This document shows, one piece after another, positions 38,271 through 63,556 of a stretch of DNA of 64,000 bases (position 1 is its first letter; each line of letters begins with the position of its first letter). Source of the stretch: Escherichia phage SmurfNell; the sequence record OR896824.1; one strand, given 5' to 3'. Below the pieces are notes generated by a model. The model saw nothing but the letters and a program-made list of their open reading frames with translations, was not told the DNA's origin and searched no databases. Made by a program: the position numbers and the translations under genes.

Positions 38271-38299
38271 ATTATAGCAAGTATTTAAGCATTTAGCAA
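38271..38299 (-). promoter_or_regulatory. Sigma70-type promoter inside the split-ligase gap
   Basis: Minus strand TTGCTA, 17-nt spacer, TATAAT, then ATTTATATAAATTGATAAGGAAGAAATTTGATG. Confidence 0.6.
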
Positions 38300-38442
38300 C
38301 TACAATTTTAACTAACTTTGCTTACCCTCGCCATAACTTTCTATCCCTCAACTGAATGATAATAGTATATACCTAAGCGGCGAAAATGTCAATAACCACT
38401 TTATAATTCCGACATGGTAAACGGGTAGCAAAGGGTTACGAA

Positions 38443-39414
38443 TTAGTCGTATACTCGCTCTACTATACAAGGGATTACACCACCAGCACGAATCACTCGA
38501 ATCTGGCAACCGATCTCTAAATCGAGAGCGTTAATATAATCAACGTTATTAAGAGTTGCTTTAACAATTGTGGCATCATCAATAATCACCGGCTCGAAAT
38601 AACCAACTGGAGTTACTTTACCAGAAGCCCCTACTTGCCATTCAACTTTAACAAGTGTGGTAATTTCGCCTTCTTCATCCTCTTTAATAGCAAATGCACC
38701 ACGAGGAAATTTATTAGTCCAACCTTCGCGATAGAATTTGTTGTTGTCATTAATACGAACAACTTTACCATCCGTCGGAATCCACTTAAAGAAGGAACGC
38801 ACGTTAACAACTGTTAAGAAGTTCTCATTCTCTAACCAAAGCATATCTTTTAAATAGGCTTCTGTAATACCGACTGTTTCCGCTGAACACTGGATACCAT
38901 ATGCAACGAAGATTAACCCACCTTCACCAATACGTTGCATGAAATCATCACTGTCTTTCAGGTTAATAGCACCAGAAGCGTAGTTACGCTTGTTCTCTAC
39001 TTCTTTAGTAATGAGAACTTCACCAGTGATTTGAGTTGGTACTTTTTGGGAAATAGTTTTGGGGATGTTCAGCATTTTAACATTATTCGTTACATCATTC
39101 CCTAGAATACCGTTACCACGAGTTAACGCTTGAACAAATTCACCATTAATGTATAATAGAGAAATCGCACAACCATCTAACTTATCAGTTTCAACCTGAC
39201 CTAATGGATTAAACGGAGCTTTATCACCACGATCGTAATAGACTTTCTGTAAAGAATACATACGATACAAATGAGGAATATCACCTTTCGGCCCGATTTC
39301 TTCCTCTAACGGGAATCTTTTAATCAGACGATCATATTCTTCATCGGAAATAAGACTCATTCCCTGGTAGTACGCTTCTTGACAACGTTTGATAAAGTCT
39401 TTTACATTATTCAT
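38443..39414 (-). CDS. NAD-dependent DNA ligase, N-terminal adenylation subunit
   Basis: KxDG adenylation motif TDKLDGCAISL; N-terminal NAD-binding Ia-like region; OB-fold region at C-terminus. Confidence 0.8.
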   Translation of the reverse strand: MNNVKDFIKRCQEAYYQGMSLISDEEYDRLIKRFPLEEEIGPKGDIPHLYRMYSLQKVYYDRGDKAPFNPLGQVETDKLDGCAISLLYINGEFVQALTRGNGILGNDVTNNVKMLNIPKTISQKVPTQITGEVLITKEVENKRNYASGAINLKDSDDFMQRIGEGGLIFVAYGIQCSAETVGITEAYLKDMLWLENENFLTVVNVRSFFKWIPTDGKVVRINDNNKFYREGWTNKFPRGAFAIKEDEEGEITTLVKVEWQVGASGKVTPVGYFEPVIIDDATIVKATLNNVDYINALDLEIGCQIRVIRAGGVIPCIVERVYD

Positions 39415-39607
39415 CGTCTGCTATTTCCATTTTGAGTTCTTTATTATACTGAGCAGCCATACCAGCTAAATCAGCAGCTTCTTTCAACCACGCATCTTTG
39501 TACGCTTTCTGGTTTGGAGTGCCGATACTATCCTGGTAATTGATTCTTGCTATGGAGAGCAAATTAAGTTTTGCTTGAATCTTTGGAAGTGTTATTGTCA
39601 TTGCCAT
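39407..39607 (-). CDS. Hypothetical small protein
   Basis: 66 codons from ATG at 39607 with GAGAGGA SD 6 nt upstream; translationally coupled to ligase A. Confidence 0.45.
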   Translation of the reverse strand: MAMTITLPKIQAKLNLLSIARINYQDSIGTPNQKAYKDAWLKEAADLAGMAAQYNKELKMEIADDE

Positions 39608-39636
39608 AATTGATCCTCTCATCAATTTATATAAAT

Positions 39637-39665
39637 ATTATATATGAAAACTGAGTCGAAAGCAA
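39637..39665 (-). promoter_or_regulatory. Sigma70-type promoter
   Basis: Minus strand TTGCTT, 17-nt spacer, TATAAT, leader ATTTATATAAATTGATGAGAGG. Confidence 0.6.
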
Positions 39666-39673
39666 GTACATTT

Positions 39674-39707
39674 ATAAAGAAAAAGCCAAGAACTAGGCAT
39701 TCTTGGC
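39674..39707 (-). terminator. Rho-independent terminator
   Basis: GCCAAGAA-loop-TTCTTGGC hairpin; minus strand followed by TTTTTCTTTAT. Confidence 0.6.
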
Positions 39708-40001
39708 TTTGAGTTCTTCAGCTCGTTTCTGTACTTCATGCAAGACCTCGGATTCACTGAGGATTTGCGTAAAAGCGTAGAATAGCTGTGATGTAGTTTC
39801 TAGGGTATAAGGAAAAGAGAAGCCGGATTTCGTTGGAAACCACTCTCCAGTAATATCTTGGAGCCAGTAACGAATTCCCATGTATAGATTCCCACGAAAT
39901 TCAGATACGGTTAGTCTTACTTGTTCCCCCTCCTTCTCCCAAAGCATGATGGACTGGTCGTCAACGTGTCCTTCATAGTTTTGATTTACCTGATCGCTCA
40001 T
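39693..40001 (-). CDS. PC4/YdbC-like ssDNA-binding protein
   Basis: RLTVSEFRGNLYMGIRYWLQDITGEWFPTKSGFSF matches the PC4-type ssDNA-binding fold signature. Confidence 0.6.
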   Translation of the reverse strand: MSDQVNQNYEGHVDDQSIMLWEKEGEQVRLTVSEFRGNLYMGIRYWLQDITGEWFPTKSGFSFPYTLETTSQLFYAFTQILSESEVLHEVQKRAEELKAKNA

Positions 40002-40013
40002 TTACATATCCCA

Positions 40014-40042
40014 AATACACAAAAAGCCCCCTATAGGGGGCT
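40014..40042 (-). terminator. Rho-independent terminator
   Basis: Perfect AGCCCCC-TATA-GGGGGCT hairpin; minus strand followed by TTTTTGTGTATTT. Confidence 0.65.
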
Positions 40043-40052
40043 AATTGGTTTC

Positions 40053-40349
40053 TTATCGGCCTACTGGAGAAGCACGATCTAACTCTGACTGGAGGCTCGT
40101 CACACGGCGAACTTTCGCAACAGGAATGAAACGGAAGCTATCGTTAGTACGAGAGAAAACGAGGATTTCATCTTCTTTCGGCTTACGGATGCGCTCACGT
40201 TTAATACGCTCAGCCAGGTATTTATCCTGAGCTGGATCAAATTCCATAGTACCCTGAAGGTATGTAGTTCCTTTCTGACGAAGTTTTTCGTAATGAAGAT
40301 AAAACTCACCAAATTTTTCGCATTGAGCAATAATTTCAGCTTTATTCAT
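40053..40349 (-). CDS. Hypothetical protein
   Basis: 98-aa ORF. Confidence 0.45.
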   Translation of the reverse strand: MNKAEIIAQCEKFGEFYLHYEKLRQKGTTYLQGTMEFDPAQDKYLAERIKRERIRKPKEDEILVFSRTNDSFRFIPVAKVRRVTSLQSELDRASPVGR

Positions 40350-40385
40350 AACTGTATTCCTTGTGTTGGTGGATTTATCTAAGAA

Positions 40386-40796
40386 TTACTTAGTGATAGC
40401 TCGGATAGCTTCTGCCAGATGAGCAGCTGCTTTACCGGTCAGCTTGTCGATGATTGCGTCGTCCAGGAAGTCCGGTGCTAAGCCAGCATCAGAGAATGCA
40501 GAGCGAAGATCGGAGTGAGCCTGAGCTTTGGAAGTACGAGAACCACCAGAAGCTTTTTCTCCAGTAGATGCGTTTGATTTAGAAGTAGAGCCAGCAGCTT
40601 TCTTGATATACAGACCTGCTTTGGTCAGCTTCATACGGAAACCGTTCGGAGTTACACCATTTTCCTGAGCAATTTCGCTAACAATTTCCATGCTAACGCC
40701 CGGACGCTCATCTTCTGGGAATTGCTCCATACGAGCAACGTAGTCGGAAGACATTTTTTCGAACAGTTCATCAGTCCACTGAGTTGGAGTAGTCAT
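40386..40796 (-). CDS. Hypothetical highly expressed early protein
   Basis: 136 aa; host-optimal codon usage; SD AAGGAAAT upstream. Confidence 0.5.
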   Translation of the reverse strand: MTTPTQWTDELFEKMSSDYVARMEQFPEDERPGVSMEIVSEIAQENGVTPNGFRMKLTKAGLYIKKAAGSTSKSNASTGEKASGGSRTSKAQAHSDLRSAFSDAGLAPDFLDDAIIDKLTGKAAAHLAEAIRAITK

Positions 40797-40854
40797 ATTT
40801 TTCGATTTCCTTAATTAAGAATTAAACAGAATAGTTCTTTCAAACTATGAGAAT

Positions 40855-40883
40855 ATTATATCAAGAATTACAGGATTAAGCAA
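40855..40883 (-). promoter_or_regulatory. Sigma70-type promoter
   Basis: Minus strand TTGCTT, 17-nt spacer, TATAAT. Confidence 0.55.
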
Positions 40884-40903
40884 CTGAAATTTTTCAGTAA
40901 CTG

Positions 40904-41158
40904 CTACACATCTAGTTCAACGATCTCCCAATCGTCGGCCAGAGCTTCGTCTAGAGTTAGCTCAGTGGTTTTCCACGATGCATCGTCTAGCGTGAGTTTA
41001 GTACGCCCATCTTTAGACCACCACCAAGTAAATTCTATAATGTCGTTATTATCAACATCTACTTTGATGATAGTGGTAGAATAAGTATTATTTTCCCAGC
41101 TATCTCGCTGGAGATATTTTACGTCTCCAGCTTTTAACAGACCAGTTAGTTTACTCAC
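40904..41158 (-). CDS. Hypothetical small protein
   Basis: 84 codons from GTG with AAGGAAAA SD upstream. Confidence 0.4.
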   Translation of the reverse strand: MSKLTGLLKAGDVKYLQRDSWENNTYSTTIIKVDVDNNDIIEFTWWWSKDGRTKLTLDDASWKTTELTLDEALADDWEIVELDV

Positions 41159-41855
41159 GGCGTTTTCCTTTCTCTTTATCGAGTTTCAAGGCAGCTTTAA
41201 CAGCTTCATTAACCAATGTGATAACTTCTTCACGGCTCCACTTAAAGCCCAGAGCCTTAACATCAACTCCCAGCTTTTCCAGATGTTTAACAGAAGCTAA
41301 TTCGTAGTGCATATAGTGAACGTTCTGTTGTTTACCTTCTGATAACAACCAAACACGATAGCAACCAACTGGGTTAGTCATTGCTTTCTTGATTTCACCA
41401 ATACACTGATAGCCAGGAACCCAAACAAGTTCACCAACTTCAAATTCCTCTGCCATTGCATCATCAGGAATCAATGGAGGATTCAATGGATCAACAATAT
41501 CATTTAAACGAAGCAGAGCACCGTAACGTTCCAGGACAGATTTAATCATCGCTACAGAACGATAATTACGATCAGCAATTTCTTCAAAAGAATCACCAGA
41601 AAGATACTGTTCAATTACGTTTGCAAGCTCAACACCTTCAATCAGTGTTCCACGCTTCTTCTTTTTCATTTCCGCAACTTGAACCTGACGATCTCTCCAT
41701 TCCTCGATCATTCGTTCCATAGTTGGGTTAGAAGAAACACCGAGCATTTCACATGCTACTTTCTTAGTACCACCATTCTCCAGATGTTCAATGACCTTTT
41801 TAAAGGTTTCATCAGGGATTTCATGGATAAGTTTCTTTCTACGAGAACCAGCCAT
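41151..41855 (-). CDS. Putative HTH DNA-binding protein
   Basis: 234 aa; TKKVACEMLGVSSNPTMERMIEEW helix-turn-helix-like N-terminus; SD GAGAGGAG. Confidence 0.5.
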   Translation of the reverse strand: MAGSRRKKLIHEIPDETFKKVIEHLENGGTKKVACEMLGVSSNPTMERMIEEWRDRQVQVAEMKKKKRGTLIEGVELANVIEQYLSGDSFEEIADRNYRSVAMIKSVLERYGALLRLNDIVDPLNPPLIPDDAMAEEFEVGELVWVPGYQCIGEIKKAMTNPVGCYRVWLLSEGKQQNVHYMHYELASVKHLEKLGVDVKALGFKWSREEVITLVNEAVKAALKLDKEKGKRRE

Positions 41856-41886
41856 ATTTAAACTCCTCTCTCAAATTTATGAATCT

Positions 41887-41915
41887 ATTATACAGAAAAT
41901 TTTTCCTGAAAGCAA
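41887..41915 (-). promoter_or_regulatory. Sigma70-type promoter
   Basis: Minus strand TTGCTT, 17-nt spacer, TATAAT, leader AGATTCATAAATTTGAGAGAGGAG. Confidence 0.6.
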
Positions 41916-41923
41916 ATAAATTT

Positions 41924-42382
41924 TTAAGCTGGATATAGCTCGGCTTTGAAAGCAGCTCTAACTTCTATTGCCTCTTCTAACGAATTGCATTGTTGGTACT
42001 TACGAGTATTTCCTTTTTGCATAAGTACACAGTATTTTTCACCGCGCATATAGATATTAGATTCTCCTAACTTATTGTCCTTTCTCACATCTATATTATG
42101 CATTTGATCAGATCTATTGGAATCTTCTAGATTCTCTATGAAATTACAATCCTTAATTCTGTTCTTGTGGTCTATCTCCTCAGGAATATATCCTTTATGA
42201 TACAGAAAGACTAACTGATGTTCTCCCCATTTCTTGCCTTTGAAACCAATCCTGATATACCCTTTGTGCTTCCCACCCGCAAACTGCCCTATTAACCTCT
42301 TTTGGTTAGTTTTCCTCCATTTGAGGTGGCCAGTTTCTGGATCATATTCAAAGGCTTCTCTAACCTCTTCTTGAGTTATCAT
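41924..42382 (-). CDS. HNH-AP2 homing endonuclease
   Basis: YDPETGHLKWR...GYIRIGFKGKKWGEHQLVFLYHKGYIPEEIDHKNRIKDCNFIENL; paralogous to 51331 and 55539 ORFs. Confidence 0.75.
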   Translation of the reverse strand: MITQEEVREAFEYDPETGHLKWRKTNQKRLIGQFAGGKHKGYIRIGFKGKKWGEHQLVFLYHKGYIPEEIDHKNRIKDCNFIENLEDSNRSDQMHNIDVRKDNKLGESNIYMRGEKYCVLMQKGNTRKYQQCNSLEEAIEVRAAFKAELYPA

Positions 42383-42611
42383 CTTCTTTAATTAATTCTC
42401 CTAATTCCTTATAAACACGTTCTAACTCAAAAGGGATACGTAAGGATACTCGTACCTTACGTTGTTTTAATAGCCATATAGATACGTTCGGAATACCAGC
42501 CAATCTGGGAGGGACCACTCGGCATAGTTTCTCCGCAGTATCGTAAACAGAAGTTTTACGTTCTTTTACGTAAAACTTCCTTGTTTCCCACTTTTTATTC
42601 TTCGCTGTCAT
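42360..42611 (-). CDS. Hypothetical small basic protein
   Basis: 83 codons from ATG at 42611; overlaps the 3' end of the upstream helicase gene. Confidence 0.35.
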   Translation of the reverse strand: MTAKNKKWETRKFYVKERKTSVYDTAEKLCRVVPPRLAGIPNVSIWLLKQRKVRVSLRIPFELERVYKELGELIKEDDNSRRG

Positions 42612-45384
42612 TTCTAGCCCCCAATTCAGCAAGAGCTTCCTCATGCATCTGACGTTCTTCATCTGTCATAAACTTAACTGGAATCGGCATACATTCGATC
42701 TTACAGTAAGTTCTGTACCAGTCCACAATCTTTTCCGTATCCAGATCTTTACCGATACCCATCATGCCAAGATACATACGAGCATATTTTGGGTTAGCGC
42801 TCTGACCTGTCTTAAGGAAGAAATCCTTCTTCTTATTCTTAAGAGCTTCGATAAACGGTTTGATTGTTACGTTTGAACACTTTTTAATATCTTCCCAGAA
42901 CATGTCGTGCATCTTATGGAAGAATGCAGCTCTATCGTTTGGTTTATCCTTGATATACTGTTCAACGTGTTCCACTGTTACATCTTTAATAGAATCCAGA
43001 TGATAATAGCGAACCAGAAGCAATTTAGCTTCATAGGCATCTGCATGACGTGGTGCGCAATATTCAGGAGTTGAGTGCAAAATAGCTTTGATTCGCTCTT
43101 CTGTATACTCTTTGCCTGCACCTTCGATAGTTCCCCAGCTTTCACTGAAAATATCAATAGTTGCACCCTGATCAAGCAGATAATAACGCAAAGTACTAGT
43201 ATAGTTTCTGGACTCCAGTTCACGACGACGTGCATACAGCTGCTGAGCTAACTCAACCCAACCCTCATCAATATTATATTGCTCGGAACCCGCAGAAAAT
43301 CCACTCGTAGATTTATCAATAAAATAATAAATGTTCTGAGCACCACGGTCGCGCCTGATTGCTTGGAAACGCATGTTTGGCGCTTGGTTTGAGGTTCTAG
43401 TGATAACAAATACGTTATCAAAATAGTTAAAGTCAACGCCACTCGTTACAGATGGACTACATAACAAACAATCAATCTGTTGATCAATTAGCTCATTAGT
43501 AGTGTAATCCAGAATACGTCGGATATCTACATCAGACGTAGAGTTTGAGTGAATTTCTTTAACTAACGCACCAGTGTTACGACGTAACGCCATCCCCTTT
43601 TCATTCAGTTCATCTGGCCCACAGTCAGATACTAGGATTGATTTCTCCCCCATCTCTAGTGAAGTCTGGAGTGCGACCCAAATACTGGATTCATCAGGGA
43701 ACTCATATGCATGAGCTTTTGCCAGCATTTTACGGTGATGATTATAGAACGCGACCGGTTTATCAAAATCAATCAAAGAACCATAGGCTTCAATCGTTTC
43801 TGCACTGATATCACCATCAGATAAGATAACCGTTTTTGCAGTAATAAGAATATCGCGAAGAACCTGAATACATTCACGACGGTTTTTAACAACCGGGGCG
43901 AATAACAGATCATTCATTACTGCGTCACATTCATCAATAAAGATCGTATCAATCTGACCCACAAAGCTCTTGAACTTATGGATAGAGTGAATAGTTGAAG
44001 ACATACGATCAATAGCACCACGTTTGAAGTTCAGCATATCAACTGACTTATCATACTGACCAGCACCGAATTTCTTCGCGTTTGAAGATACAAGTGCCCT
44101 AGTATTCGTGATTGCAATAAAGTTTCCTGGAAGAACACCTGCATCTAGCCACTTAGTTACTGCTGTGGTTTTACCTGTACCAAGACTTGCCTTAACAAAT
44201 GTTAAATGTCCTTTTGGGGGTACAATGTTAATCTTCAAGTATGGAACTTCTGGCGGTGAATCTGTGTCCAGACGCTTTAGTGGTACACCTTTTAAGTTGG
44301 GTGGAATCTCACGTTTGGAGTTATTCACAAAGGCTTTTAGAGCCTGCTTACGACCGTTATTAAAGTAATCTTGAATATTACGACTATTATCTTTAGTTGC
44401 AATATATTCAGATAAAGCTGGTTTAATCTCACGTTCTAACCACGTAAAGTCAACACCATCTTCTAACGCTCTGTGATAAAGTTTTGGGATAATACGCAGG
44501 TACACCCCATCCTCAGCTTCTTCTAGTTCGCTGATGGTTTCTTCCACTTTATCAGATGCAGCCTTCTTGCCTTTAATTTGGTCAAGTAAGGAGTAGAATT
44601 CTTCTTTAAACTCACCTCTAGTTGTTTCAAAGTCAACTAGGTTATTGGGTAGATTCACTTTCGAACCCTTAACATACACAAGACGTGGTTTATTCTCCGC
44701 TTTAAACGGATCGACTATACCATCATCAAATAAGGGATCTGCGAAATAGTGAAGCTGAACAGAAGAATAATAAGCTAAGTCAGCAATATCAAAGCCATAC
44801 TTTTGCTTACTACTGTCATTGATGGATGTAAATAAGAATTTTAATTGCCCCTGCGTTACCTTGACATTAGATTCTAGCATTAAGTGCATTCGGATACCTG
44901 GTTTTAATCCAGCCGAAGACGATGCATGAGCAATAAACCCTGCATCAAGAGGAAACATATCCTCACTAATACTATTCAACATCTTAATAATATGACGTGC
45001 CATGCCAACAAGATTAAACTTGTCATAGCCACCAGTATCTACAATACCATCCACGTCCATAGCAATAATATGACTAGGATTGGATACGTTAAAGTTTCCC
45101 CTGGTACGACGCACATTATCTTTTGGAGCTAAACATTTACCACGAATAGCTACAATATGCGGGTCTTTGGTAAGACGACGCATGATAGGTAACATTTCAG
45201 CAAGGTTTTGCGGGTCAAGTTCTTCAAGTACATCAAATTTGAAGGGCATGGAAGCTGGTTTACCTTCTGGATGCTCTTTAGAGAATCGCTTTGCAAAGGT
45301 GTAATCTTCCACTTTGATCTCTTTCCAGATGCCAGTGGCTTTATCTCTGGAAAATCCTGCGTGACCTTGTAGGATTGAGAACAC
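42595..45384 (-). CDS. Origin-binding-type helicase with N-terminal primase-like region
   Basis: Walker A ASLGTGKTT, DExD box IFIDECDAV, QAIRRDRG; N-terminal HIIAMDVDG acidic motif; start set at GTG 45384 (AGGAG 8 nt upstream), ORF track extends to 45507. Confidence 0.6.
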   Translation of the reverse strand: MFSILQGHAGFSRDKATGIWKEIKVEDYTFAKRFSKEHPEGKPASMPFKFDVLEELDPQNLAEMLPIMRRLTKDPHIVAIRGKCLAPKDNVRRTRGNFNVSNPSHIIAMDVDGIVDTGGYDKFNLVGMARHIIKMLNSISEDMFPLDAGFIAHASSSAGLKPGIRMHLMLESNVKVTQGQLKFLFTSINDSSKQKYGFDIADLAYYSSVQLHYFADPLFDDGIVDPFKAENKPRLVYVKGSKVNLPNNLVDFETTRGEFKEEFYSLLDQIKGKKAASDKVEETISELEEAEDGVYLRIIPKLYHRALEDGVDFTWLEREIKPALSEYIATKDNSRNIQDYFNNGRKQALKAFVNNSKREIPPNLKGVPLKRLDTDSPPEVPYLKINIVPPKGHLTFVKASLGTGKTTAVTKWLDAGVLPGNFIAITNTRALVSSNAKKFGAGQYDKSVDMLNFKRGAIDRMSSTIHSIHKFKSFVGQIDTIFIDECDAVMNDLLFAPVVKNRRECIQVLRDILITAKTVILSDGDISAETIEAYGSLIDFDKPVAFYNHHRKMLAKAHAYEFPDESSIWVALQTSLEMGEKSILVSDCGPDELNEKGMALRRNTGALVKEIHSNSTSDVDIRRILDYTTNELIDQQIDCLLCSPSVTSGVDFNYFDNVFVITRTSNQAPNMRFQAIRRDRGAQNIYYFIDKSTSGFSAGSEQYNIDEGWVELAQQLYARRRELESRNYTSTLRYYLLDQGATIDIFSESWGTIEGAGKEYTEERIKAILHSTPEYCAPRHADAYEAKLLLVRYYHLDSIKDVTVEHVEQYIKDKPNDRAAFFHKMHDMFWEDIKKCSNVTIKPFIEALKNKKKDFFLKTGQSANPKYARMYLGMMGIGKDLDTEKIVDWYRTYCKIECMPIPVKFMTDEERQMHEEALAELGARNDSEE

Positions 45385-45880
45385 AACAATACTCCTATGT
45401 TGGTTATTCGGATATCTTTCTTTAGGACTATTCAAAAGAATAGAACAACTATTACTACCATTTACACAAACATTAATCATCATCAAGCAGTATGAATAAG
45501 TTATCATACCTCAGTGCTGCGCTCTCTTAACTCTTATCCAGATCAGAACCTAGGTCATTGGCCGCTAAGCCGATTCTGATTGCCCTCACTATCCTATTGG
45601 TAGGTGGCTACTGGACGTGTCACCATTCGCTGCTCTTTTCGTTCGCACCCCCATATAAAGCTCTGCCTATATAACGAGCTAAATATGCACGGTTTGGATT
45701 TACCTTTCCGAATTCAGGGTACGCAGATCACTTAATTGATAATTAACTAATGCAGTATAAACACTAGTAATAGTTAAAACAACCCTTAATGGGGCAGCCT
45801 AACTGTTCCGTATTGCGGATTGTAAACAAGAAAAATTAGCAAAATCAATTTTTACTAATGTCTCTCAATTCAATATAAAT

Positions 45881-45909
45881 ATTATATCAAGATTTTGAGC
45901 ATCCTGCAA
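45881..45909 (-). promoter_or_regulatory. Sigma70-type promoter with long leader
   Basis: Minus strand TTGCAG, 17-nt spacer, TATAAT, then ATTTATATTGAATTGAGAGAC; about 500 nt untranslated before helicase start. Confidence 0.5.
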
Positions 45910-45949
45910 GTAAAATTTTTCCGAAGGTGCTATCAGTGTCCTTGAGCAC

Positions 45950-45976
45950 AGAGAAAACCGAGTCATTTTGACTCGG
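45950..45976 (-). terminator. Rho-independent terminator
   Basis: CCGAGTCA-loop-TGACTCGG hairpin; minus strand followed by TTTTCTCTGTG. Confidence 0.6.
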
Positions 45977-46000
45977 TAATCAGGATTGAGCTAATGAAAA

Positions 46001-46396
46001 TCAATCATCATTTAGGCCTGGGACATAGATTCCAATGCGATTTAATTGACCTTTAGCTTCTTCGAGAATATCTTCGGTGTACTCCCAAATATCATCTTCT
46101 ACTTGCAAAAGATAAGGGGATTCACCAGTTTCGGGGTCACGTGTAATGGCTAAGCCACGTGGATGGAATATAGAGAAGTTGAGGGCAACAATCAAGCCCA
46201 TGCTGGACAATTCATTCCAGTCAGCTTCCCAACCATCATCTTCATCTTCGTCCACAAAGACACCTACACTAGGGTCTGTTACAGAAGTAAACGGAAATGT
46301 TACACTAACCTTGTCAACCCCCAACCAACGTGCAAGGAGCCCTTCAGCACGCTCTACCAAACTAGGATCTATCTGACGCCAAAATACTTGTTCCAT
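46001..46396 (-). CDS. Hypothetical protein, paralog B of tandem pair
   Basis: 131 aa; strong SD TAAGGAGG; core MGLIVALNFSIFHPRGLAITRDPETGESPYLLQV...IGIYVPGL aligns with upstream paralog. Confidence 0.6.
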   Translation of the reverse strand: MEQVFWRQIDPSLVERAEGLLARWLGVDKVSVTFPFTSVTDPSVGVFVDEDEDDGWEADWNELSSMGLIVALNFSIFHPRGLAITRDPETGESPYLLQVEDDIWEYTEDILEEAKGQLNRIGIYVPGLNDD

Positions 46397-46405
46397 TCTG
46401 CCTCC

Positions 46406-46834: not shown

Positions 46835-46836
46835 AT

Positions 46837-47376: not shown

Positions 47377-47515
47377 CAGTAAAAGGAACTGGAACCTTCA
47401 ATTCACCTTTACCCCACATAACAGATAGGAACAGAGAATAAATGGTAATCATACCGATTAGGTTGACAAACCATACTAGACCTTTCCAGATACCCTTAAA
47501 AATCTTCTTCACCAT
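47330..47515 (-). CDS. Small membrane protein
   Basis: 62 codons from ATG 47515 with AAGGAGGGAG SD; single TM segment GLVWFVNLIGMITIYSLFLSVMW. Confidence 0.5.
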   Translation of the reverse strand: MVKKIFKGIWKGLVWFVNLIGMITIYSLFLSVMWGKGELKVPVPFTDEVKVWTWDATGGNK

Positions 47516-53088: not shown

Positions 53089-53126
53089 ATTTCCTAAATC
53101 CTGATAACTACAAAAAGGAAAGCCAA

Positions 53127-55457
53127 ATGAGCCATCGCATAGAAAAAGTAATTAAACGTGACGGTACTGTAGAAGACTTTGCTCCTGAAAAACTCAATGG
53201 TTGGGCAGTGTATGGCTGCAAAACAGTTGATGTAAGCTGGTCATCCATCACTATGGCTGCTCAAAAAACTCTACCTAAAGGTGTTGTAGACTCCGACACC
53301 CTAATGGATGCGTTAATTAAAGCCGCTGAAGGTCTTATCAAAGATAACCCAGCATATGACGTGCCGGCTAAGGAATTACGTCTTGCGCAGATGCGTAAAC
53401 GTCTATATGATTCCTTCGAGCCTCCTTCTCTGCGTTTCTTCCACGATCATATGGTTAGTGTTGGAGCTTGGGAAGACATGAGTGCATGGATTACTGATGA
53501 ACAATTTGAAGCTCTGAATCAAGTTATCGACCATGATCGTGATCGTTTATTCACCAGTGGTGGACTGAAACAGTTCTTCGACAAGTATTCCCGTCGTAAT
53601 ATTGCAACTGGTGAAATTTATGAAACTCCGCAGTTTGCCTACATGGGTATGGCAATGGCGATGCTATCTCAACCTAACTGGACAATTCTAGATGCAATCG
53701 ACCTCTACAATGCAATGTCGCTCCACAAAATCAACGTTCCTACGCCGCCACTGGTTGGCCTGCGCTCTAGTGACCGTGGATTTGCTAGTTGCTGCCTCGT
53801 GGATTCCACTGACACGCTGGATTCAATCGACACAGCCGAGCACATCGTCTTCAAAATGGTCGCAGCCAGAGCGGGAATCGGGTATCATCTTGAAAGCCGA
53901 TCAATTGCTGATCCGGTGCGAAATGGGGCATTCCCGCATTCCGGAAAACTGCCATATTATAGACACATTGACCGATCAGTAAAAGCTAACACTCAGCAAA
54001 CCCGTGGTGGTTCTGCTACTGTGTCTTACCCATACTTCGATCCTGAAATCATTCAGTTGATGCAGGTTAAACAGCAACGTGCTACAGACGAGAATAAAAT
54101 CGATAAGATGGATTACTCTCTGAGCTTTAACAACCTTCTGTTAAAACGTTACCTGAAAAACGAAGATATTACGCTAATGTCCTACTTCTACGCACCAGAA
54201 GTTCATAAAGCGTTTTATGGTGAAGATGAGGCTAAGTTTGAAGAAATCTACGTGGCAGCGGAGAAACGTGTGGCATCTCTTACAAAGATCGACCACGAAG
54301 GAAAAACAATTCCAGCAGCTCCTAGAATCTCTGCAAAAGAAATCCTAGATACTTGGTTACGTATCCGTATGGAAACAGGGCGTATGTATGCTCATCACAT
54401 TGGTGAATCTAACCGTCATGGTAACTTCCTTGACCCGATTCGTATGACCAACCTTTGTGTTGAAATTACTCAGCCAACCCGTCCATTCCATCACATTACG
54501 GAACTGTATAAGACCCAAGATCAGTTAGACGATATGCGTCCAGAAGATATTGGTGAAGTATCTTTGTGTAACTTAGGTGGTGTTGTACTAGGTCGCATGG
54601 AATCTCTAGCTGAATGGGAGAAAACTTGCTACATCCTTCTGAAATTCGTTGATACAATCATCGAGATTCAGGACTACCCATTCCCAACCATGGAATACAC
54701 GGCTAAGAAACGTCGTAACGTTGGTATTGGTCTGATGAACGCGGCAGGTGCAATGGCAGCAGAAGGTTTGGCTTACGAAGGTGTTGAAGCCCGTAACTGG
54801 ATTCACCGTGAAGCTGAAAAGCTGTCCTACTTCCTGCACAAAGCCTCTGTACGTCTGGCTAAAGAACAAGGTGCATGTGACTGGTTTAATCGTACTAAAC
54901 CATCCAAAGGAACTCTGGTAATCGACACGTACAAGAAAACTGTTGATGAACTGGTAACTGTAGGTCTAGAAATGGATTGGGAATCTCTGCGTGCAGATAT
55001 TCTGAAATATGGTATGCGCAACTCTGTTCTGACTGCTCAGATGCCGGGAGAAAGTTCCTCTGTACTGCTAGGTGTTACTAACTCTATCGAGCCGCCTCGT
55101 AAGATTGTATCTATCAAGGGTAGTGCAGTGAATAAAGTAATTGCAATTGCTCCAGGTGCAACCGATTGGGATACATTAATGAGTTATAAACTGGCTTATG
55201 ATGTAGATCGTATCGAGTGGATCAAATGGGTAGCAACCATGCAGAAATTCTTCAGTCAGTCTATCAGTACGAATATGTACTATGACTACACCAAGTTTGA
55301 GAATGAAATCATTCCTGGTCCAGTAGTAGTTCGTGATTTCATGACTGCTGTTAAGTACGGCTGGAAAACTTGGTACTACGCTAACTTCAACACTGAAAAT
55401 GGTGGTGGAGCTGGTGAAGAAGCAGCAGGTTGTGCATCAGGTGGTTGTACTATTTAA
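53127..55457 (+). CDS. nrdA: Ribonucleoside-diphosphate reductase large subunit (class I)
   Basis: N-terminal ATP-cone (HRIEKVIKRDGTVEDF); catalytic-core motifs NLCVEI, SLCNLG; start set at ATG 53127 with AAAGGAAAG SD. Confidence 0.85.
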   Translation: MSHRIEKVIKRDGTVEDFAPEKLNGWAVYGCKTVDVSWSSITMAAQKTLPKGVVDSDTLMDALIKAAEGLIKDNPAYDVPAKELRLAQMRKRLYDSFEPPSLRFFHDHMVSVGAWEDMSAWITDEQFEALNQVIDHDRDRLFTSGGLKQFFDKYSRRNIATGEIYETPQFAYMGMAMAMLSQPNWTILDAIDLYNAMSLHKINVPTPPLVGLRSSDRGFASCCLVDSTDTLDSIDTAEHIVFKMVAARAGIGYHLESRSIADPVRNGAFPHSGKLPYYRHIDRSVKANTQQTRGGSATVSYPYFDPEIIQLMQVKQQRATDENKIDKMDYSLSFNNLLLKRYLKNEDITLMSYFYAPEVHKAFYGEDEAKFEEIYVAAEKRVASLTKIDHEGKTIPAAPRISAKEILDTWLRIRMETGRMYAHHIGESNRHGNFLDPIRMTNLCVEITQPTRPFHHITELYKTQDQLDDMRPEDIGEVSLCNLGGVVLGRMESLAEWEKTCYILLKFVDTIIEIQDYPFPTMEYTAKKRRNVGIGLMNAAGAMAAEGLAYEGVEARNWIHREAEKLSYFLHKASVRLAKEQGACDWFNRTKPSKGTLVIDTYKKTVDELVTVGLEMDWESLRADILKYGMRNSVLTAQMPGESSSVLLGVTNSIEPPRKIVSIKGSAVNKVIAIAPGATDWDTLMSYKLAYDVDRIEWIKWVATMQKFFSQSISTNMYYDYTKFENEIIPGPVVVRDFMTAVKYGWKTWYYANFNTENGGGAGEEAAGCASGGCTI

Positions 55458-55466
55458 TAAAAACAA

Positions 55467-55493
55467 GGAGATCTTCGGGTCTCCTTTTTCTTT
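55467..55493 (+). terminator. Rho-independent terminator after nrdA
   Basis: GGAGATC-TTCG-GGTCTCC hairpin followed by TTTTTCTTT. Confidence 0.6.
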
Positions 55494-55503
55494 GAAATTT
55501 TAC

Positions 55504-55532
55504 TTGCTAATCGCTACCAGATTTGCTATAAT
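55504..55532 (+). promoter_or_regulatory. Sigma70-type promoter
   Basis: TTGCTA, 17-nt spacer, TATAAT; ATG of HNH gene only 6 nt downstream of the -10. Confidence 0.55.
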
Positions 55533-55538
55533 ATCTAT

Positions 55539-56036
55539 ATGAAATTAACACAGAGTAGATTAAAAGAGCTAATCTCCTATGACCCTGAAACTGGCGAATT
55601 TACCTGGCTCCCAAGAAAAACTTTAGCAAAGCATTTATGGAACGCTAAAGCAGGAACCTATGATAAATTAGGGTATCTTCGTATAAAAGTTGAAGGAGTT
55701 CAATATTTAGCTCATCGCCTAGCCTTCTTGTATATGACTGGAGAAATACCAGAAGGAAAAATTGACCATAAAGATACTAATCCGTCTAATTGCGCCTGGG
55801 ATAATCTCCGTGAAGCCACGAGTTCTCAAAATTCTATGAACTCGTGTGCAAGATCGGATAACCAGCTTGGAATGAAAAATATTCGTGTAAAAGGCACTTC
55901 ATTTCAGGTTAGGATAGGCAAAGACGGCAAATCTTATACAAAAACTTTTAAAACCCTAGAAGAAGCTATAGAATGGAGAGACACCAAACTACTAGAACTT
56001 CATGGGGACTTTGCAAACAACGGAGAAGCTAAATGA
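55539..56036 (+). CDS. HNH-AP2 homing endonuclease inserted between nrdA and nrdB
   Basis: YDPETGEFTWL...GYLRIKVEGVQYLAHRLAFLYMTGEIPEGKIDHKDTNPSNCAWDNLREA plus AP2-like C-terminus. Confidence 0.75.
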   Translation: MKLTQSRLKELISYDPETGEFTWLPRKTLAKHLWNAKAGTYDKLGYLRIKVEGVQYLAHRLAFLYMTGEIPEGKIDHKDTNPSNCAWDNLREATSSQNSMNSCARSDNQLGMKNIRVKGTSFQVRIGKDGKSYTKTFKTLEEAIEWRDTKLLELHGDFANNGEAK

Positions 56037-57708: not shown

Positions 57709-58559
57709 AGCAATATATTGAAACTGGAAAACGTATTCTTGAAGAGGGTGTATGGGTAACGAATCCTAGAACAGGGGTTCGTTGCCTAACCATTATTGAT
57801 GCAGACTTTACCTTTAACGTAGGAGCAGGAGAACTGCCGCTAGTAACTACTCGTAAAGCATTTGCTAAACAAGCAATAATGGAAATGATCGGATATCTCC
57901 GTGGGTACGACTCAGCAGCACAATTCCGCGCTATTGGTGTTAATACATGGAATGCTAATGCAAATGAAAATATTGCCTGGCTAGGTAATCCATTCCGTAA
58001 AGGCGAGGATGATATGGGACGAGTCTATGGTGTTCAAGGACGTCATTGGACTAATTCTGATGGTATGGTATTTGATCAGTTAGCCAAAGTCTATCATAAT
58101 TTGAAAAGAGGGATTGACGATCGTGGAGAAATTTTAACTTTTTGGAACCCTGGGGAATTTCGTAGAGGATGCCTACGTCCGTGTATGCATACCCATCAAT
58201 TCTCTATTTTAGGTGATACACTATACCTAAACTCTTTCCAGAGGTCTAATGATTTCTTGCTGGGCCAAGTATTTAATATGGTGCAATGCTATGCACTTCT
58301 AGCTATTATGGCACAGATTACAGGTCTTAAGCCAGGTATTGCTCGTCAAAAGATTATTAATCTTCATATCTATGAAGATCAGTATAATGTTCTGATGGAG
58401 CACAAGCAATTCGATCGTGAACCTTTTGCACCTCCTACTTTAGAAATCAATCCAAATATTAGAACTTTGGATGATGTATTAACGTGGGTAAGTAAGGATG
58501 ATTTTACTGTTCGTGGCTATGAACACCATCCTGCTATTGCATACCCATTCACAGTCTAA
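57705..58559 (+). CDS. thyA: Thymidylate synthase
   Basis: 284 aa; active-site region [12 protein letters not shown] and substrate-binding motifs; follows DHFR. Confidence 0.8.
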
Positions 58560-58565
58560 TTCAAA

Positions 58566-58590
58566 TAGCCCTTCGGGGCTATTATATTTA
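58566..58590 (+). terminator. Rho-independent terminator
   Basis: TAGCCC-TTCG-GGGCTA hairpin followed by TTATATTTAAATTT. Confidence 0.6.
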
Positions 58591-58598
58591 AATTTCAT

Positions 58599-58627
58599 TT
58601 GCTTACTGAGTGAAATTCAAATATAAT
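58599..58627 (+). promoter_or_regulatory. Sigma70-type promoter
   Basis: TTGCTT, 17-nt spacer, TATAAT. Confidence 0.6.
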
Positions 58628-58657
58628 ATACTTCTAATTTGACAGAAGGATTTAATA

Positions 58658-59236
58658 ATGACAGCCATAGTAGCATTTAAATATAAAGATAAAGTATACT
58701 TAGCTGGTGATCGTATGGGTTCTAATGGCTATACGAAACTGCTGGTTAAAAATCCGAAAGTATTCAAAATCTCTGATGATTTGTACTTCGGATACACTAG
58801 TTCCTTCTACATGGGACAATTACTAGAGCATAGCTTTACTGTACCACCACGTTTAGCAGATATTTCCGATGATAAATATTTATATACGGAAATAGTACCT
58901 AAATTACGTGATATGTTTAACCAGAAAGACTTTGGCGAAAAGAAAAATGAAAAATATGCTGAACCTAATCTGGGACAATTTATTATGCTCTACAAAGGAA
59001 GAATCTTTATTTTCCAATCTAATGCTTCTATTCTAGAAGTTGAATATGCCGGTGTAGGCTGTGGAGGAGAAGATGTACTTTCCAGTATTCGTACAGGTTT
59101 AGCTATTGCGGATTGTCGAGCCACAGATTTAGATGTAGATGATATATTTGAAATCATTGATCTGGCTTTTACGCATTGTGCAGATTATATGTGTGGTGTA
59201 TCTTCCCAACATGATGTTTTAGTAATTGGAGAATAA
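58658..59236 (+). CDS. HslV/proteasome beta-like Ntn-hydrolase peptidase
   Basis: M-T-AIVAF...LAGD...K at position 33 of mature chain...GVGCGG reproduces HslV Thr1, Asp17, Lys33 and GSGG spacing; SD AGAAGGA. Confidence 0.7.
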   Translation: MTAIVAFKYKDKVYLAGDRMGSNGYTKLLVKNPKVFKISDDLYFGYTSSFYMGQLLEHSFTVPPRLADISDDKYLYTEIVPKLRDMFNQKDFGEKKNEKYAEPNLGQFIMLYKGRIFIFQSNASILEVEYAGVGCGGEDVLSSIRTGLAIADCRATDLDVDDIFEIIDLAFTHCADYMCGVSSQHDVLVIGE

Positions 59237-59984: not shown

Positions 59985-60004
59985 TAAATAATTTAAAAAT
60001 TCAC

Positions 60005-60033
60005 TTACTTAAAGCCCTCGAATTTAGTATAAT
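60005..60033 (+). promoter_or_regulatory. Sigma70-type promoter framed by 9-bp inverted repeat
   Basis: TTACTT, 17-nt spacer, TATAAT; AAAGCCCTC (60011-60019) and GAGGGCTTT (60052-60060) flank -10 and SD. Confidence 0.5.
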
Positions 60034-60060
60034 ATTCGTATTGAAAGTGAGGAGGGCTTT

Positions 60061-60339: not shown

Positions 60340-60355
60340 TTTTTAAAAAATTCAT

Positions 60356-60384
60356 TTGCTAAACGCTTCAAAATTTCGTATAAT
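60356..60384 (+). promoter_or_regulatory. Sigma70-type promoter
   Basis: TTGCTA, 17-nt spacer, TATAAT, then ATATCTCATAAATTGA leader box. Confidence 0.6.
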
Positions 60385-60422
60385 ATATCTCATAAATTGA
60401 TCAACAAAAAGGAAAACAAATA

Positions 60423-61469: not shown

Positions 61470-61499
61470 TAGTTTTCTACAACAATAAAGGACATAATT

Positions 61500-62201
61500 A
61501 TGAAATTCAAGCCCTTTGGTATGCTGGACATTGAATCTCTAGGTACTCCAGGAAATTGCGGTACTACTCATATTGCAATGCCTTCTTTCGCTTTTGTAGC
61601 GATGCACGGAATTGATAAAGATCCTGATCTGGTATTCGTTACTCTAGACGTTCAAGATCAGCTTAATGCGGGTGCTAAGGTAACTGCCTCTACTATTGCA
61701 TTCTGGATGGATCAAGCTAAAAACAGTCCATCTGCGCTCCATATTATGGAGGCTCTAAATGGTCGTAATCCTAAGCTGATTGCCTTCCGTGATGGTAAGC
61801 ATCACTGCACTAATGACGTAGGCTCTAATTATGCTGCCTTCTCTATGGCTCAGAACATTATGGAATTGTCTCTAGGAGATAATGCTCTGTATTACGGCAA
61901 TGGCCCAGAGTTTGATATGACAATCTACTCTGCAAATACGTTCCATGCCGGAACCCATGAAGAAATAGTTCCGTGGAAATTCTGGAACTTAGGTAACGTT
62001 CGATCTTTCCGTAATCAGTGGATGCAAGCTGGTTATAGCTATAAAGATCTAGAAGCCGAAGGTGCTAGCTGGGCAAAAGCTAAAATGGAAAAGATGGACA
62101 CCATTCGTTATGGAATCTATCCTGTGAAGCATGATCCAGCATTCGATGCTTTAGTTGAAAGTTATTGTGTAGCCGTCATGATCGAAAAAATCAAAATTTG
62201 A
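61500..62201 (+). CDS. DEDDh-family 3'-5' exonuclease (DnaQ-like fold)
   Basis: Exo I MLDIESLG, Exo II-like GNGPEFDM, Exo III HDPAFDA (H-x4-D). Confidence 0.65.
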   Translation: MKFKPFGMLDIESLGTPGNCGTTHIAMPSFAFVAMHGIDKDPDLVFVTLDVQDQLNAGAKVTASTIAFWMDQAKNSPSALHIMEALNGRNPKLIAFRDGKHHCTNDVGSNYAAFSMAQNIMELSLGDNALYYGNGPEFDMTIYSANTFHAGTHEEIVPWKFWNLGNVRSFRNQWMQAGYSYKDLEAEGASWAKAKMEKMDTIRYGIYPVKHDPAFDALVESYCVAVMIEKIKI

Positions 62202-62202
62202 T

Positions 62203-62231
62203 TTGCTTTCAGCTCCAAAATTCTGTATAAT
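62203..62231 (+). promoter_or_regulatory. Sigma70-type promoter
   Basis: TTGCTT, 17-nt spacer, TATAAT, then ATATTCATAAATTTGAGAGAAC. Confidence 0.6.
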
Positions 62232-62271
62232 ATATTCATAAATTTGAGAGAACAACAAAAGGAAAATAATT

Positions 62272-62454
62272 ATGCCAGTATCTAAAAACGTCCGTAAAAA
62301 TGGTAAAGTAGCAAAACGTAACCTGGGTCTGCGTCGTATGGCTGAGCGTCAGTCCGGCATCCAGAAAATCTTTAATGTACTGAATCGCGCCAACCCGAAT
62401 ATTGATAACAGTTCTGATACTGTTCTGCGCACTCTGCTGGCAATCGGTCTGTAA
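62272..62454 (+). CDS. Hypothetical small basic protein
   Basis: 60 aa; SD AAAGGAAAAT. Confidence 0.45.
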   Translation: MPVSKNVRKNGKVAKRNLGLRRMAERQSGIQKIFNVLNRANPNIDNSSDTVLRTLLAIGL

Positions 62455-62508
62455 TAGGCCGTTTTTAAAACAAATTCAAATCTCAAACTTCATATAAGGA
62501 AGCAAATA

Positions 62509-63147
62509 ATGACTACTCGTATCTCTAAAACTCGTGCTCTGGCAACTATCAAGTCTCTGGAAGCTAAAATCCGTAAAGCTACTGAACAACAGCTTTTGAT
62601 CGCTGTTGGTGAAGGTAAGGACAAGAACCAAGTTGTCGTTGGCGCTGCAATCGAAGTAGATGCTCTGTCTACTCGTATTAAGACTGATTTCCAGTCTCTG
62701 CTGGATATGATGTCCCAGCGTGATCAGCTGAAAGCTGCGCTGATCAAGAGCAATGCTGAAACTGTTGTAGAGATCGGTTCTCGCTCTATGACTGTTGCGG
62801 AAGCAATCGAAGCTAAGCGTTCTATGGAACTCAAAGCTCAGTTGCTGGCTAACATGCGTAAGCAGTTCCATGCTGCTACTGTTAAGTTTAACACTCAGAA
62901 GGCTCAGTTTGACGCCAAGTATGAGCGTCTGCAGGATACCATGGCTACCCGCGACAAGAAGACTTCCGAGGATGAAGTTAAGATGCAGCTTAACCTGCTG
63001 GAACTCAAGAACACTCCGTTCCTGATCGATCCGCTGGAGCTAGAAAAGCTGATCAAGCAACACGACGAAGAATACCAGGACTTTGCAACTAACGTTGACT
63101 TTGTTCTGTCTGAGTCCAACGCCTCTACTTTCATCGAAGTAGAGTAA
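62509..63147 (+). CDS. Hypothetical highly expressed early protein
   Basis: 212 aa, helical, host-optimal codon usage; SD AAGGAAG. Confidence 0.55.
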   Translation: MTTRISKTRALATIKSLEAKIRKATEQQLLIAVGEGKDKNQVVVGAAIEVDALSTRIKTDFQSLLDMMSQRDQLKAALIKSNAETVVEIGSRSMTVAEAIEAKRSMELKAQLLANMRKQFHAATVKFNTQKAQFDAKYERLQDTMATRDKKTSEDEVKMQLNLLELKNTPFLIDPLELEKLIKQHDEEYQDFATNVDFVLSESNASTFIEVE

Positions 63148-63527
63148 TAATTTAAAAGACTAGTAAATCGGTAGACGAAAGCCCAAGCATCTTACCTCGC
63201 AGCAGCGGTTGAAATACGAGGTTAAATAAGACCGCTGACCATACTATAAAGTATAATCTATTGGAGATTATGTTTATTACACCAGCCTCTTAAGCTGAAC
63301 TGTAAAAACGGTCGTTGGTAGTACCAACACAACTTCAAAGATCAACGCTCAAGTATGAAAGCTGAAAAGTTAAAAGAACTCAAACTTCTAACCTTCTAAA
63401 GCTAAAAGATGCAAAGTATTCGTTGATGATTCAAACCCTAGATCAAAGGTACATGGCTCATAAGATATGGCCTGTGGCGCCTCTAGGCTGTTTATCGGTT
63501 CACTAGTCTCTCAATTTAAAAATGTAT

Positions 63528-63556
63528 TTGCTAATTAGTTTAGTTTTCTATATAAT
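63528..63556 (+). promoter_or_regulatory. Sigma70-type promoter
   Basis: TTGCTA, 17-nt spacer, TATAAT, then ATATTTTTAAATTGATGAGACGAGG. Confidence 0.6.

Follow-up and report, generated by a model that had tools for sequence, protein, structure and literature searches.

What is the element that recurs upstream of gene after gene in the early region of Escherichia phage SmurfNell (sequence record OR896824.1), and what is the conserved sequence that follows it? The window analyzed here, a stretch of 64,000 nucleotides from that record, belongs to a T5-like phage (Demerecviridae, Epseptimavirus) and shares 98.9% identity with Salmonella phage gmork across positions 38000-52000. An earlier note had listed fifteen near-consensus sigma70 promoters in it, many followed by a shared "leader box" that might be the site of a phage regulator or a translation enhancer. 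We find that the repeated element is the known T5-like family of very strong early promoters, including the counterpart of P-N25, the laboratory "T5 promoter". The leader box is where the transcript begins, and in T5 this segment is already known to influence promoter escape by RNA polymerase, so that the observation is real but ordinary, and the family is already known rather than new. We put the probability that these sites serve a T5-like phage (Epseptimavirus) as early-gene promoters dependent on sigma70, with the leader box as part of the promoter, at roughly 0.9.

The core motif TTGCT[AT]-N17-TATAAT has 11 exact matches, compared to 0.05 expected from 100 dinucleotide shuffles. All fifteen listed coordinates do carry TATAAT with an upstream -35-like hexamer, but TTGCTW with a 17-nt spacer is present at only 11 of them. 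The four variant hexamers, at 29778 (TTGGCA), 45881 (TTGCAG), 51167 (TTGACA), and 29677 (TTGTCA), are the same as, or near, those of their T5 counterparts; site 51167 is a perfect 12/12 consensus (TTGACA-17-TATAAT), while 29677, which had been given an exact 17-nt spacer, is better read as TTGTCA with an 18-nt spacer. When the fifteen sites are aligned, information content remains high throughout -45 to +15; around the other 63 TATAATs in the window, nothing outside the hexamer is conserved. An A/T block at -45 to -39 carries 0.7-1.3 bits per position, and the corresponding pattern AAAAWT[TG]-N3-TTG occurs 14 times (1.8 expected). Every site is intergenic or at a gene 3' end and is oriented with its downstream genes.

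These sites were compared to the 34 annotated promoters extracted from the T5 GenBank record AY543070. All fifteen pair one-to-one with an annotated T5 promoter in the same gene order, the counterparts including P-N25, P-N26, P-K28a, P-H207, and P31A/P31B. Ungapped identity to the counterparts lies between 55/146 and 146/146 positions, with the lower values due to indels or different flanking genes, and per-position identity is 0.81-1.00 across -45 to +8 compared to 0.68-0.76 in the flanks. With a matrix built from 22 T5 promoters and nothing else, all fifteen sites and five more score above the maximum of 100 shuffles. The list had left out at least four family members, at 34258-34287(-), 38364-38392(-), 53060-53088(+), and 60005-60033(+), and two of its own sites, 29677 and 29778, fall outside the range of 38271-63556 that it gave. 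The likeness to the early promoters of T5 (Bujard laboratory; AY543070) is one of equal position by the same genes and equal -45 to +15 architecture. The differences are that the phage examined here is an Epseptimavirus (given as of Salmonella) and not T5 itself, and that the spacer or the following gene differs at a few sites (ligA, 55504, and 49193). Klimuk 2020 (PMC7472727) credits the identification of T5 promoters to the in vitro transcription work of Gentz & Bujard 1985, and reports that 11 of the 19 T5 promoters tested gave primer-extension products. In the T5-like phage AKFV33, 32 predicted promoters have been described that share TTGCTw, a 17-18 nt distance, TATAATA, AAAAATT at -43, and TAAATT at +1 (Niu 2012, PMC3326045), a consensus that anticipates the earlier note's observation nearly word for word. 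That paper differs in treating the +1 element only as A/T richness, with no extension to the GAGAG run or overlap with a ribosome-binding site (PMC3326045). The claim of a repeated early sigma70 promoter cassette is therefore supported, as the sites match promoters annotated in the T5 record and their consensus is the published one (PMC3326045). Use of the sites as promoters in SmurfNell is probable by correspondence to T5.

On the minus strand, the P-N25 counterpart (-45 to +15 at 41866-41925) lies upstream of the D2 gene (41151-41855). This site, 41887(-), reads TTGCTT-17-TATAAT, AGATTC, then ATAAATTTGAGAGAGGAG, and a single base separates it from published P-N25 between -35 and +20 (primer sequence, PMC4447248). 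The P-N26 counterpart (40834-40893) precedes D3 (40386-40796) and has a degenerate box, ATAGTTTGAAAGA, and the counterpart of the T5 ligA promoter (T5 record 65284-65358) lies at 39616-39675. Upstream of ligB, the P-K28a counterpart (38250-38309) is identical to T5 at 146/146 aligned positions and stands in tandem with the P-K28b counterpart (38343-38402; TTGACA-17-TATACT), which lacks the box and was absent from the earlier list. Also absent was the DNA polymerase promoter at 34237-34297 (TTGCCG-18-TATAAT followed by ATATTGGTAAGTTAGAGAAG), known as Ppol in T5, where its transcripts were detected by primer extension (PMC7472727). The P31A counterpart (29757-29816; TTGGCA-17-TATAAT) overlaps the 3' end of the D10 helicase gene, and the P31B counterpart (29656-29715; TTGTCA-18-TATAAT) lies 101 nt downstream of it, as in T5; both have the full box. 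The counterpart of the promoter at 58999-59073 of the T5 record (45860-45919; TTGCAG-17-TATAAT), site 45881(-), is followed by a non-coding leader of ~370-490 nt and then an origin-binding/helicase gene. The two remaining minus-strand members are the counterpart of the promoter at 55708-55782 of the T5 record (49172-49231) and the nrdD promoter (51146-51205), which has a perfect TTGACA-17-TATAAT and a weak or absent box.

On the plus strand, the phoH promoter (51896-51955), counterpart of T5 record 53638-53712, has a degenerate box, GTAAGTTGATAAAC. The nrdA promoter (53050-53109; TTGCAA-17-TAGAAT), again missing from the earlier list, has no box, and in Klebsiella phage Sugarland the equivalent site precedes the annotated start of nrdA. 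The counterpart of T5 record 50061-50135 (55494-55553), site 55504(+), likewise has no box; similarity to T5 and to phage atrejo ends there 4 nt past the -10 element, and a different HNH endonuclease gene comes next. A weak box is seen at the counterpart of T5 record 46937-47011 (58589-58648). The counterpart of T5 record 46337-46411 (59995-60054; TTACTT-17-TATAAT) is also absent from the list, and at the P-H207 counterpart (60346-60405) the box is present but displaced by 1 nt, away from the -10 element. The counterpart of T5 record 44393-44467 (62193-62252) has the full box and is the best matrix match of the window, and that of T5 record 43067-43141 (63518-63577) has the box TTTAAATTGATGAGA.

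The downstream box itself is real and enriched: the fixed-distance motif TATAAT-N5-YWTAAATTKR occurs 8 times compared to 0.00 expected, and a box-only 15-nt matrix has 10 matches of at least 14 bits compared to 0.84 expected. It is strong at 8 listed sites, recognizable at about 11-12, shifted at 60356 as described, and weak or absent at 55504, 58599, and 51167; its weakness or absence at 3-4 sites is mirrored in the T5 counterparts. With +1 assigned after Klimuk 2020 (PMC7472727), the box spans -6 to +15 and thus consists of the discriminator and the initially transcribed sequence, which places it within the promoter. The ATAT(T) discriminator and the TAAATT at +2 to +7 keep a constant spacing to the -10 element, and all 7 box matches of at least 16 bits are exactly 5 nt after TATAAT. 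Stand-alone matches score 14.0-14.9 bits, all weaker than these. From +3 to +20 the non-template strand is 72% purine, compared to 51% after other TATAATs (p = 5e-7). In the distant phage Sugarland, the box is found at 13 of 18 sites picked by their upstream half alone. Conversely, 3-4 family members in T5 and the window (nrdD, nrdA, 55504, and K28b) do without it, so that the box is not needed for promoter activity as such.

How could such a unit work? We propose that unmodified host RNA polymerase transcribes from these early promoters, each a 60-nt unit whose upstream half comprises an A/T block at -45 to -36 (AAAATTT.A, UP element-like), TTGCTw, a 17-nt (rarely 18-nt) spacer, and TATAAT, and whose downstream half comprises an A/T-rich discriminator, ATAT(T), and an initially transcribed sequence with ATAAATT(T)GAGAGA from +1. 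The box would most likely serve the late steps of initiation, combining easy melting with efficient escape of the polymerase from a very tightly bound promoter. Action in late initiation and escape has been shown for P-N25 of T5 and is most likely what the counterparts share, by analogy. Changing +3 to +20 of N25 to the antiDSR lowered full-length RNA ~10-fold and gave more abortive products (Kammerer 1986, as relayed in PMC12464699), an effect also described in PMC10911233, and productive escape is favored by purine-rich initially transcribed sequences (PMC12464699; PMC10911233). The box at +1 to +15 is the N25 initially transcribed sequence, ATAAATTTGAGAGAGGAG, used in this standard promoter-escape system (DSR/antiDSR), and its abundance of purines agrees with the rule for productive escape. 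For N25, the only promoter on which this function has been measured, the measurements were mostly made in vitro. Here, in contrast, 8-12 promoters share the word, and it turns up in a distant genus as well, a recurrence that the escape studies do not address. Because purine and A/T composition alone leaves the kept word ATAAATT(T)GA unexplained, sequence-specific recognition by the polymerase or a phage factor may add to the composition effect.

One such form of recognition would make -6 to +15 a mark of the early class, read either by polymerase that the phage has modified or by a DNA-binding protein of the phage (gpT5.026, D5, or another); recognition would shut off early promoters, or tell early from late, at the early-to-late switch, adding to the escape effect. 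We regard this as a fairly unlikely reading. Copies of the box are restricted to the early region, and the late P-G25 counterpart at 14413(+) and T5 P-J5 differ in sequence downstream of the -10 element. T5 early and late promoters differ mainly in the discriminator, with ATATT common to all known early promoters, and gpT5.026 weakens polymerase binding to -12 to +2 of N25 (TATAATAGATTCAT) ~8-fold, its loss raising early and lowering late transcripts (Klimuk 2020, PMC7472727). A role of the box or discriminator in switching between temporal gene classes is itself put forward as a hypothesis in the literature (Klimuk 2020, PMC7472727). The -6 to +15 word is kept at a dozen promoters in the window and across genera, more exactly than base composition would require. 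However, no box-binding protein is known, strong dyad symmetry was not found in the box, it never occurs apart from the -10 element, and early promoters without it exist (nrdD, nrdA, and K28b). We think it rather unlikely that the exact word (ATATT / ATAAATT(T)GAGAG) is a class mark beyond its escape-friendly composition, by which a modified polymerase (gpT5.026, with D5 or another partner) selectively silences early promoters at that switch.

Another reading takes the box chiefly as a signal for translation: a 5' leader and enhancer, A/U-rich and without structure, joined to the ribosome-binding site for high translation of the first gene. The box does merge into the Shine-Dalgarno sequence, as had been noted: at 8 of 15 sites the start codon is at +22 to +26 and the GAGAGG run at +9 to +16 is positioned as a ribosome-binding site, so that the purine run doubles as one where the leader is only ~22-26 nt, and the leaders are A/U- and purine-rich. 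Yet the box keeps its place relative to the -10 element to within 1 nt, whereas the start codon may lie anywhere from +22 to beyond +360: most sites have it at +22 to +59, P31A at +123, and 45881 at >+360. The 15-nt matrix finds no strong free-standing box ahead of a promoterless gene in the window, including inside operons, and the T5 box promoters P13b, P15b, and P16-17 sit just upstream of annotated tRNA/stable-RNA genes. Compared with shuffled sequences, the leaders show no consistent lack of structure (mean z = -0.8). The suggested translation enhancer is therefore unsupported, and we judge this reading improbable.

Equally doubtful is that units of terminator and promoter move as regulatory cassettes in the manner of the PeSLs (promoter-early stem-loops) of T4-type phages, with recombination between near-identical copies shuffling early gene modules among T5-like phages. 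In most of the related genomes listed, a 136-nt query containing one cassette has 3-7 matching places; 6 of the 7 junctions at which the window and atrejo differ by an insertion, deletion, or replacement are no more than 60 nt from a cassette; and several T5 breakpoints fall at cassette edges (39616, 40899, 41925, 49176, and 55536). The junction enrichment is confounded, however, since gene-sized indels must end in intergenic DNA, where promoters lie, and the atrejo inserts are single small ORFs or HNH endonuclease genes. PeSLs resemble the present family in being strong sigma70 early promoters with many copies across the early region, of which some carry a fused terminator stem-loop and lie close to insertion/deletion junctions (Arbiol 2010, PMC2839356), but here only a minority have a hairpin (4-5 of 19 promoters), no junction bracketed by duplicated or hybrid cassettes was seen in the one genome pair compared (window and atrejo), and the sequences are unrelated (PMC2839356). 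A PeSL-type cassette is disfavored in that not every unit has a hairpin and indels in that pair are not bounded by two or hybrid cassettes. A free-standing operator for a phage regulator is unsupported, as the box is tied to the -10 element, lacks strong dyad symmetry, and its strong copies are never alone.

Where hairpins are present, they would separate neighboring transcription units. Terminators had been described just before several sites, and intrinsic-terminator-like hairpins are indeed directly upstream of 39637 (39682-39710, minus strand, 12 pairs, its T-run leading into the promoter), 49193 (49232-49256, minus strand, 10 pairs), and 55504 (55465-55486, plus strand, after nrdA and 17 nt upstream of the -35 hexamer). 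Another (53012-53037, plus strand) precedes the -35 hexamer of the additional nrdA promoter site, 53060, by 22 nt. Before 58599(+) the case is weaker: the short hairpin there, AGCCCTTCGGGGCT (58567-58580), was recognized by reading the sequence and went unflagged in the terminator scan. The T-run does not, as had been suggested, overlap the next -35 hexamer; the overlap falls on the A/T block at -45 to -36. At 49193(-), the hairpin tail, TTTATTTTAT, makes up that block and directly abuts the hexamer, and at the equivalent place in the T5 record an annotated terminator overlaps the promoter.

The earlier note had described at least fifteen promoters sharing a -35 element of TTGCTT or TTGCTA, an exact 17-nt spacer and a TATAAT -10 element, often followed by a conserved "leader box", and in this it recognised correctly a repeated early promoter family that is real and highly non-random. 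The 64-kb window has 11 copies of the pattern TTGCT[AT]-N17-TATAAT, compared to 0.05 expected from dinucleotide shuffles, and all 11 matches fall at listed promoters. The shared -35 element and spacer are exact at these 11 sites but not at the other four, which keep TATAAT and carry TTGGCA, TTGCAG, TTGACA, or TTGTCA with an 18-nt spacer. A generic sigma70 scan was uninformative on its own (56 matches versus 51 expected; 48 versus 48), and only the family-specific pattern rises above background. All 15 sites are intergenic, or at the 3' end of a gene, and are oriented with the genes downstream of them.

When the 15 sites were aligned on the -10 element, information content was high and unbroken from -45 to +15, a promoter unit of roughly 60 nt (hereafter, the cassette), while the window's remaining 63 TATAATs carry zero information beyond the hexamer itself. 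The consensus comprises an A/T block, AAAATTT.A (-45 to -37), TTGCT (-35 to -31), a weaker GCT (-26 to -24), a weaker AAATTT (-21 to -16), TATAAT, ATAT (-6 to -3) and, from +1, ATAAATT(T)GAGAGA. The spacer GCT is moderately conserved (approximately 0.7 bits for G and C, with T lower) and gives TTGCTAAATGCTTAAAT; examples are found at 38271-38299, 55504-55532 and 60356-60384, and T5 and Sugarland promoters also carry it. Additionally, three sites have a TG just 5' of the -10 element, like extended -10 promoters. The nrdD promoter at 51167-51195(-) matches the consensus at 12/12 positions (TTGACA-17-TATAAT) and has no early box, as is also the case in T5; divergent from it, TTGACA-17-TAAGAT at 51265-51293(+) precedes a 163-aa ORF (51331-51822) that is missing from the related phage atrejo.

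Much of this architecture has been described before. For the T5-like phage AKFV33, "32 promoters" were reported whose consensus joins TTGCTw to TATAATA through a 17-18 bp spacer and includes A/T-rich stretches at -43 (AAAAATT) and +1 (TAAATT) (Niu et al., 2012; PMC3326045), and the discriminator ATATT is common to all known T5 early promoters (Klimuk et al., 2020; PMC7472727). As the latter study gives TATAATAGATTCAT as -12 to +2 of the N25 promoter, +1 is the A of CATAAATT, and the segment termed the leader box therefore spans -6 to +15 and consists of the discriminator together with the initially transcribed sequence. A search of the literature for T5 transcriptome data or mapped T5 start sites gave no relevant match. 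The early promoter family is long known, there is little new in finding it, and the function of the box in T5 already has experimental support.

The region 38000-52000 is 98.9% identical to Salmonella phage gmork and matches 571 phage records, mostly from Salmonella, Escherichia and Klebsiella phages; atrejo is classified in the Demerecviridae, genus Epseptimavirus. In T5 (GenBank AY543070), promoters are annotated as 75-nt regulatory features, and the 34 extracted from 30000-121750, the classic named ones among them, show the same cassette. All 15 sites can be paired individually with T5 promoters in the same gene context: 41887(-) with P-N25, upstream of D2; 40855(-) with P-N26, upstream of D3; 39637(-) with the ligA promoter; 38271(-) with P-K28a, upstream of ligB (146/146 nt identical); 29778(-) and 29677(-) with P31A and P31B, which are spaced by 101 nt in either genome; and 60356(+) with P-H207. 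The counterparts of 62203(+), 63528(+), 58599(+), 55504(+), 51906(+), 51167(-), 49193(-) and 45881(-) are annotated in T5 without a name. Compared over -35 to +20 with the P-N25 sequence of a cloning primer (PMC4447248), 41887(-) has a single mismatch, which falls in the spacer. A matrix trained on 22 T5 promoters alone, with the maximum score of 100 shuffles as cut-off, recovered 15/15 sites and added 34286(-), the polymerase promoter with an 18-nt spacer, 53060(+) (nrdA), 60005(+), 14413(+), the counterpart of the late promoter P-G25, and a weak match at 1377(+). A K28b counterpart, TTGACA-17-TATACT, lies at 38364-38392(-). Identity between the window and T5 is 0.92 in the discriminator, 0.89 at +1 to +8, and approximately 0.7 beyond +16. 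In the Klebsiella phage Sugarland, which belongs to a different genus and has 45% G+C, the box was present at 13 of 18 sites picked by the upstream half alone, against a background median box score of -9.7 after any TATAAT. These results confirm that the classic architecture of T5 early promoters, with the transcribed-region element known from N25, is preserved promoter by promoter in a Salmonella Epseptimavirus and at the level of the family in Sugarland. For SmurfNell, the sites provide a ready transcription-unit map for annotating the genome.

The box shows an enrichment of its own: TATAAT-N5-YWTAAATTKR has 8 matches versus 0.00 expected, and a box-only matrix yields 10 matches of at least 14 bits versus 0.84 expected, so the earlier observation stands. 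All seven matches of at least 16 bits sit exactly 5 nt after a TATAAT, and one copy of the box is shifted by 1 nt relative to the -10 element. From +3 to +20, the non-template strand is 72% purine, compared to 51% after other TATAATs (p=5e-7). Escape is the limiting step at N25 (Hsu and Han, 2025; PMC12464699), and purine-rich initially transcribed sequences promote escape (PMC12464699; PMC10911233). As summarised by Hsu and Han, Kammerer et al. (1986) found that replacing +3 to +20 with the antiDSR variant lowered full-length RNA to one tenth and increased abortive synthesis (PMC12464699). The results for the window, T5 and Sugarland are consistent with the box acting within the promoter.

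The word conserved across the discriminator and the initially transcribed sequence may also identify early genes at the early-to-late switch, a question already raised in the literature and a reading already in print as a hypothesis; indirect support comes from the confinement of the box to the early region and from the effect of gpT5.026 on binding to -12 to +2. Recombination between cassettes, as at the promoter-early stem-loops of T4-type phages, is improbable: breakpoints relative to T5 and atrejo do cluster around cassettes, with 6/7 junctions against atrejo at most 60 nt away, but this clustering is confounded by intergenic location, and the inserts relative to atrejo are single small ORFs or HNH endonuclease genes without bracketing cassette copies. 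The suggestion that the box is a translation enhancer was not borne out, as its distance from the -10 element is fixed while that to the start codon varies (+22 to +59, with P31A at +123 and 45881 past +360). Merging of the box into the ribosome-binding site holds for the 8/15 sites with a short leader (start codon at +22 to +26), where the purine run at +9 to +16 is placed to serve as the predicted ribosome-binding site, but not as a general rule. In T5, annotated tRNA and stable-RNA genes sit just downstream of some box-carrying promoters, which argues against a purely translational role. The first 45 nt of the 15 transcripts showed neither a consistent fold nor consistent unfoldedness (mean z=-0.8), and a conserved RNA structure in the leader is rejected. 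A free-standing regulator site, whether operator or enhancer, is rejected, since the box-only scan gave no strong copy apart from -10 elements.

Putative terminators do precede promoters at several sites, as the earlier note had proposed: T-run hairpins lie directly 5' of 39637, 49193, 55504 and 53060, and a weaker hairpin 5' of 58599. Their T-runs overlap the A/T block (-45 to -36) rather than the -35 hexamer; terminator/promoter overlap is likewise annotated in T5. The cassette-proximal insertions, deletions and replacements relative to atrejo lie at 39603-39615, 45828-45835, 51244-51819, 53046/53047, 55537-56021 and 58555-58560.

Several gene starts deserve comment. The longest nrdA ORF begins at 53067, inside the promoter at 53060-53088 (TTGCAA-17-TAGAAT) and without a ribosome-binding site; an ATG near 53127, with AAGGA ahead of it, is the likelier start and a probable correction to this genome's annotation. 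In Sugarland, nrdA is annotated as starting downstream of the corresponding promoter; the atrejo annotation uses the long form. At 55504, the predicted transcription start is the ATG of a 165-aa ORF (55539-56036(+)) that aligns with HNH-endonuclease genes of T5 and atrejo, so that either a leaderless mRNA is made or the real start is located farther downstream; here, likeness to T5 and atrejo ends 4 nt past the -10 element, and a different HNH gene follows. Finally, approximately 490 nt (45385-45874(-)) separate the promoter at 45881-45909(-) from the point where the origin-binding/helicase gene probably begins. No convincing ORF was found in this interval, and Rfam at gathering thresholds identified no family in the entire window, this interval included. 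Its predicted RNA fold reaches -141 kcal/mol (z=-4.8 versus shuffles), and its identity to T5 (92.9%) and to atrejo (99.3%) exceeds that of the adjacent coding gene (86.4% and 96.6%). The interval could be a structured leader, a non-coding RNA or an origin of replication.
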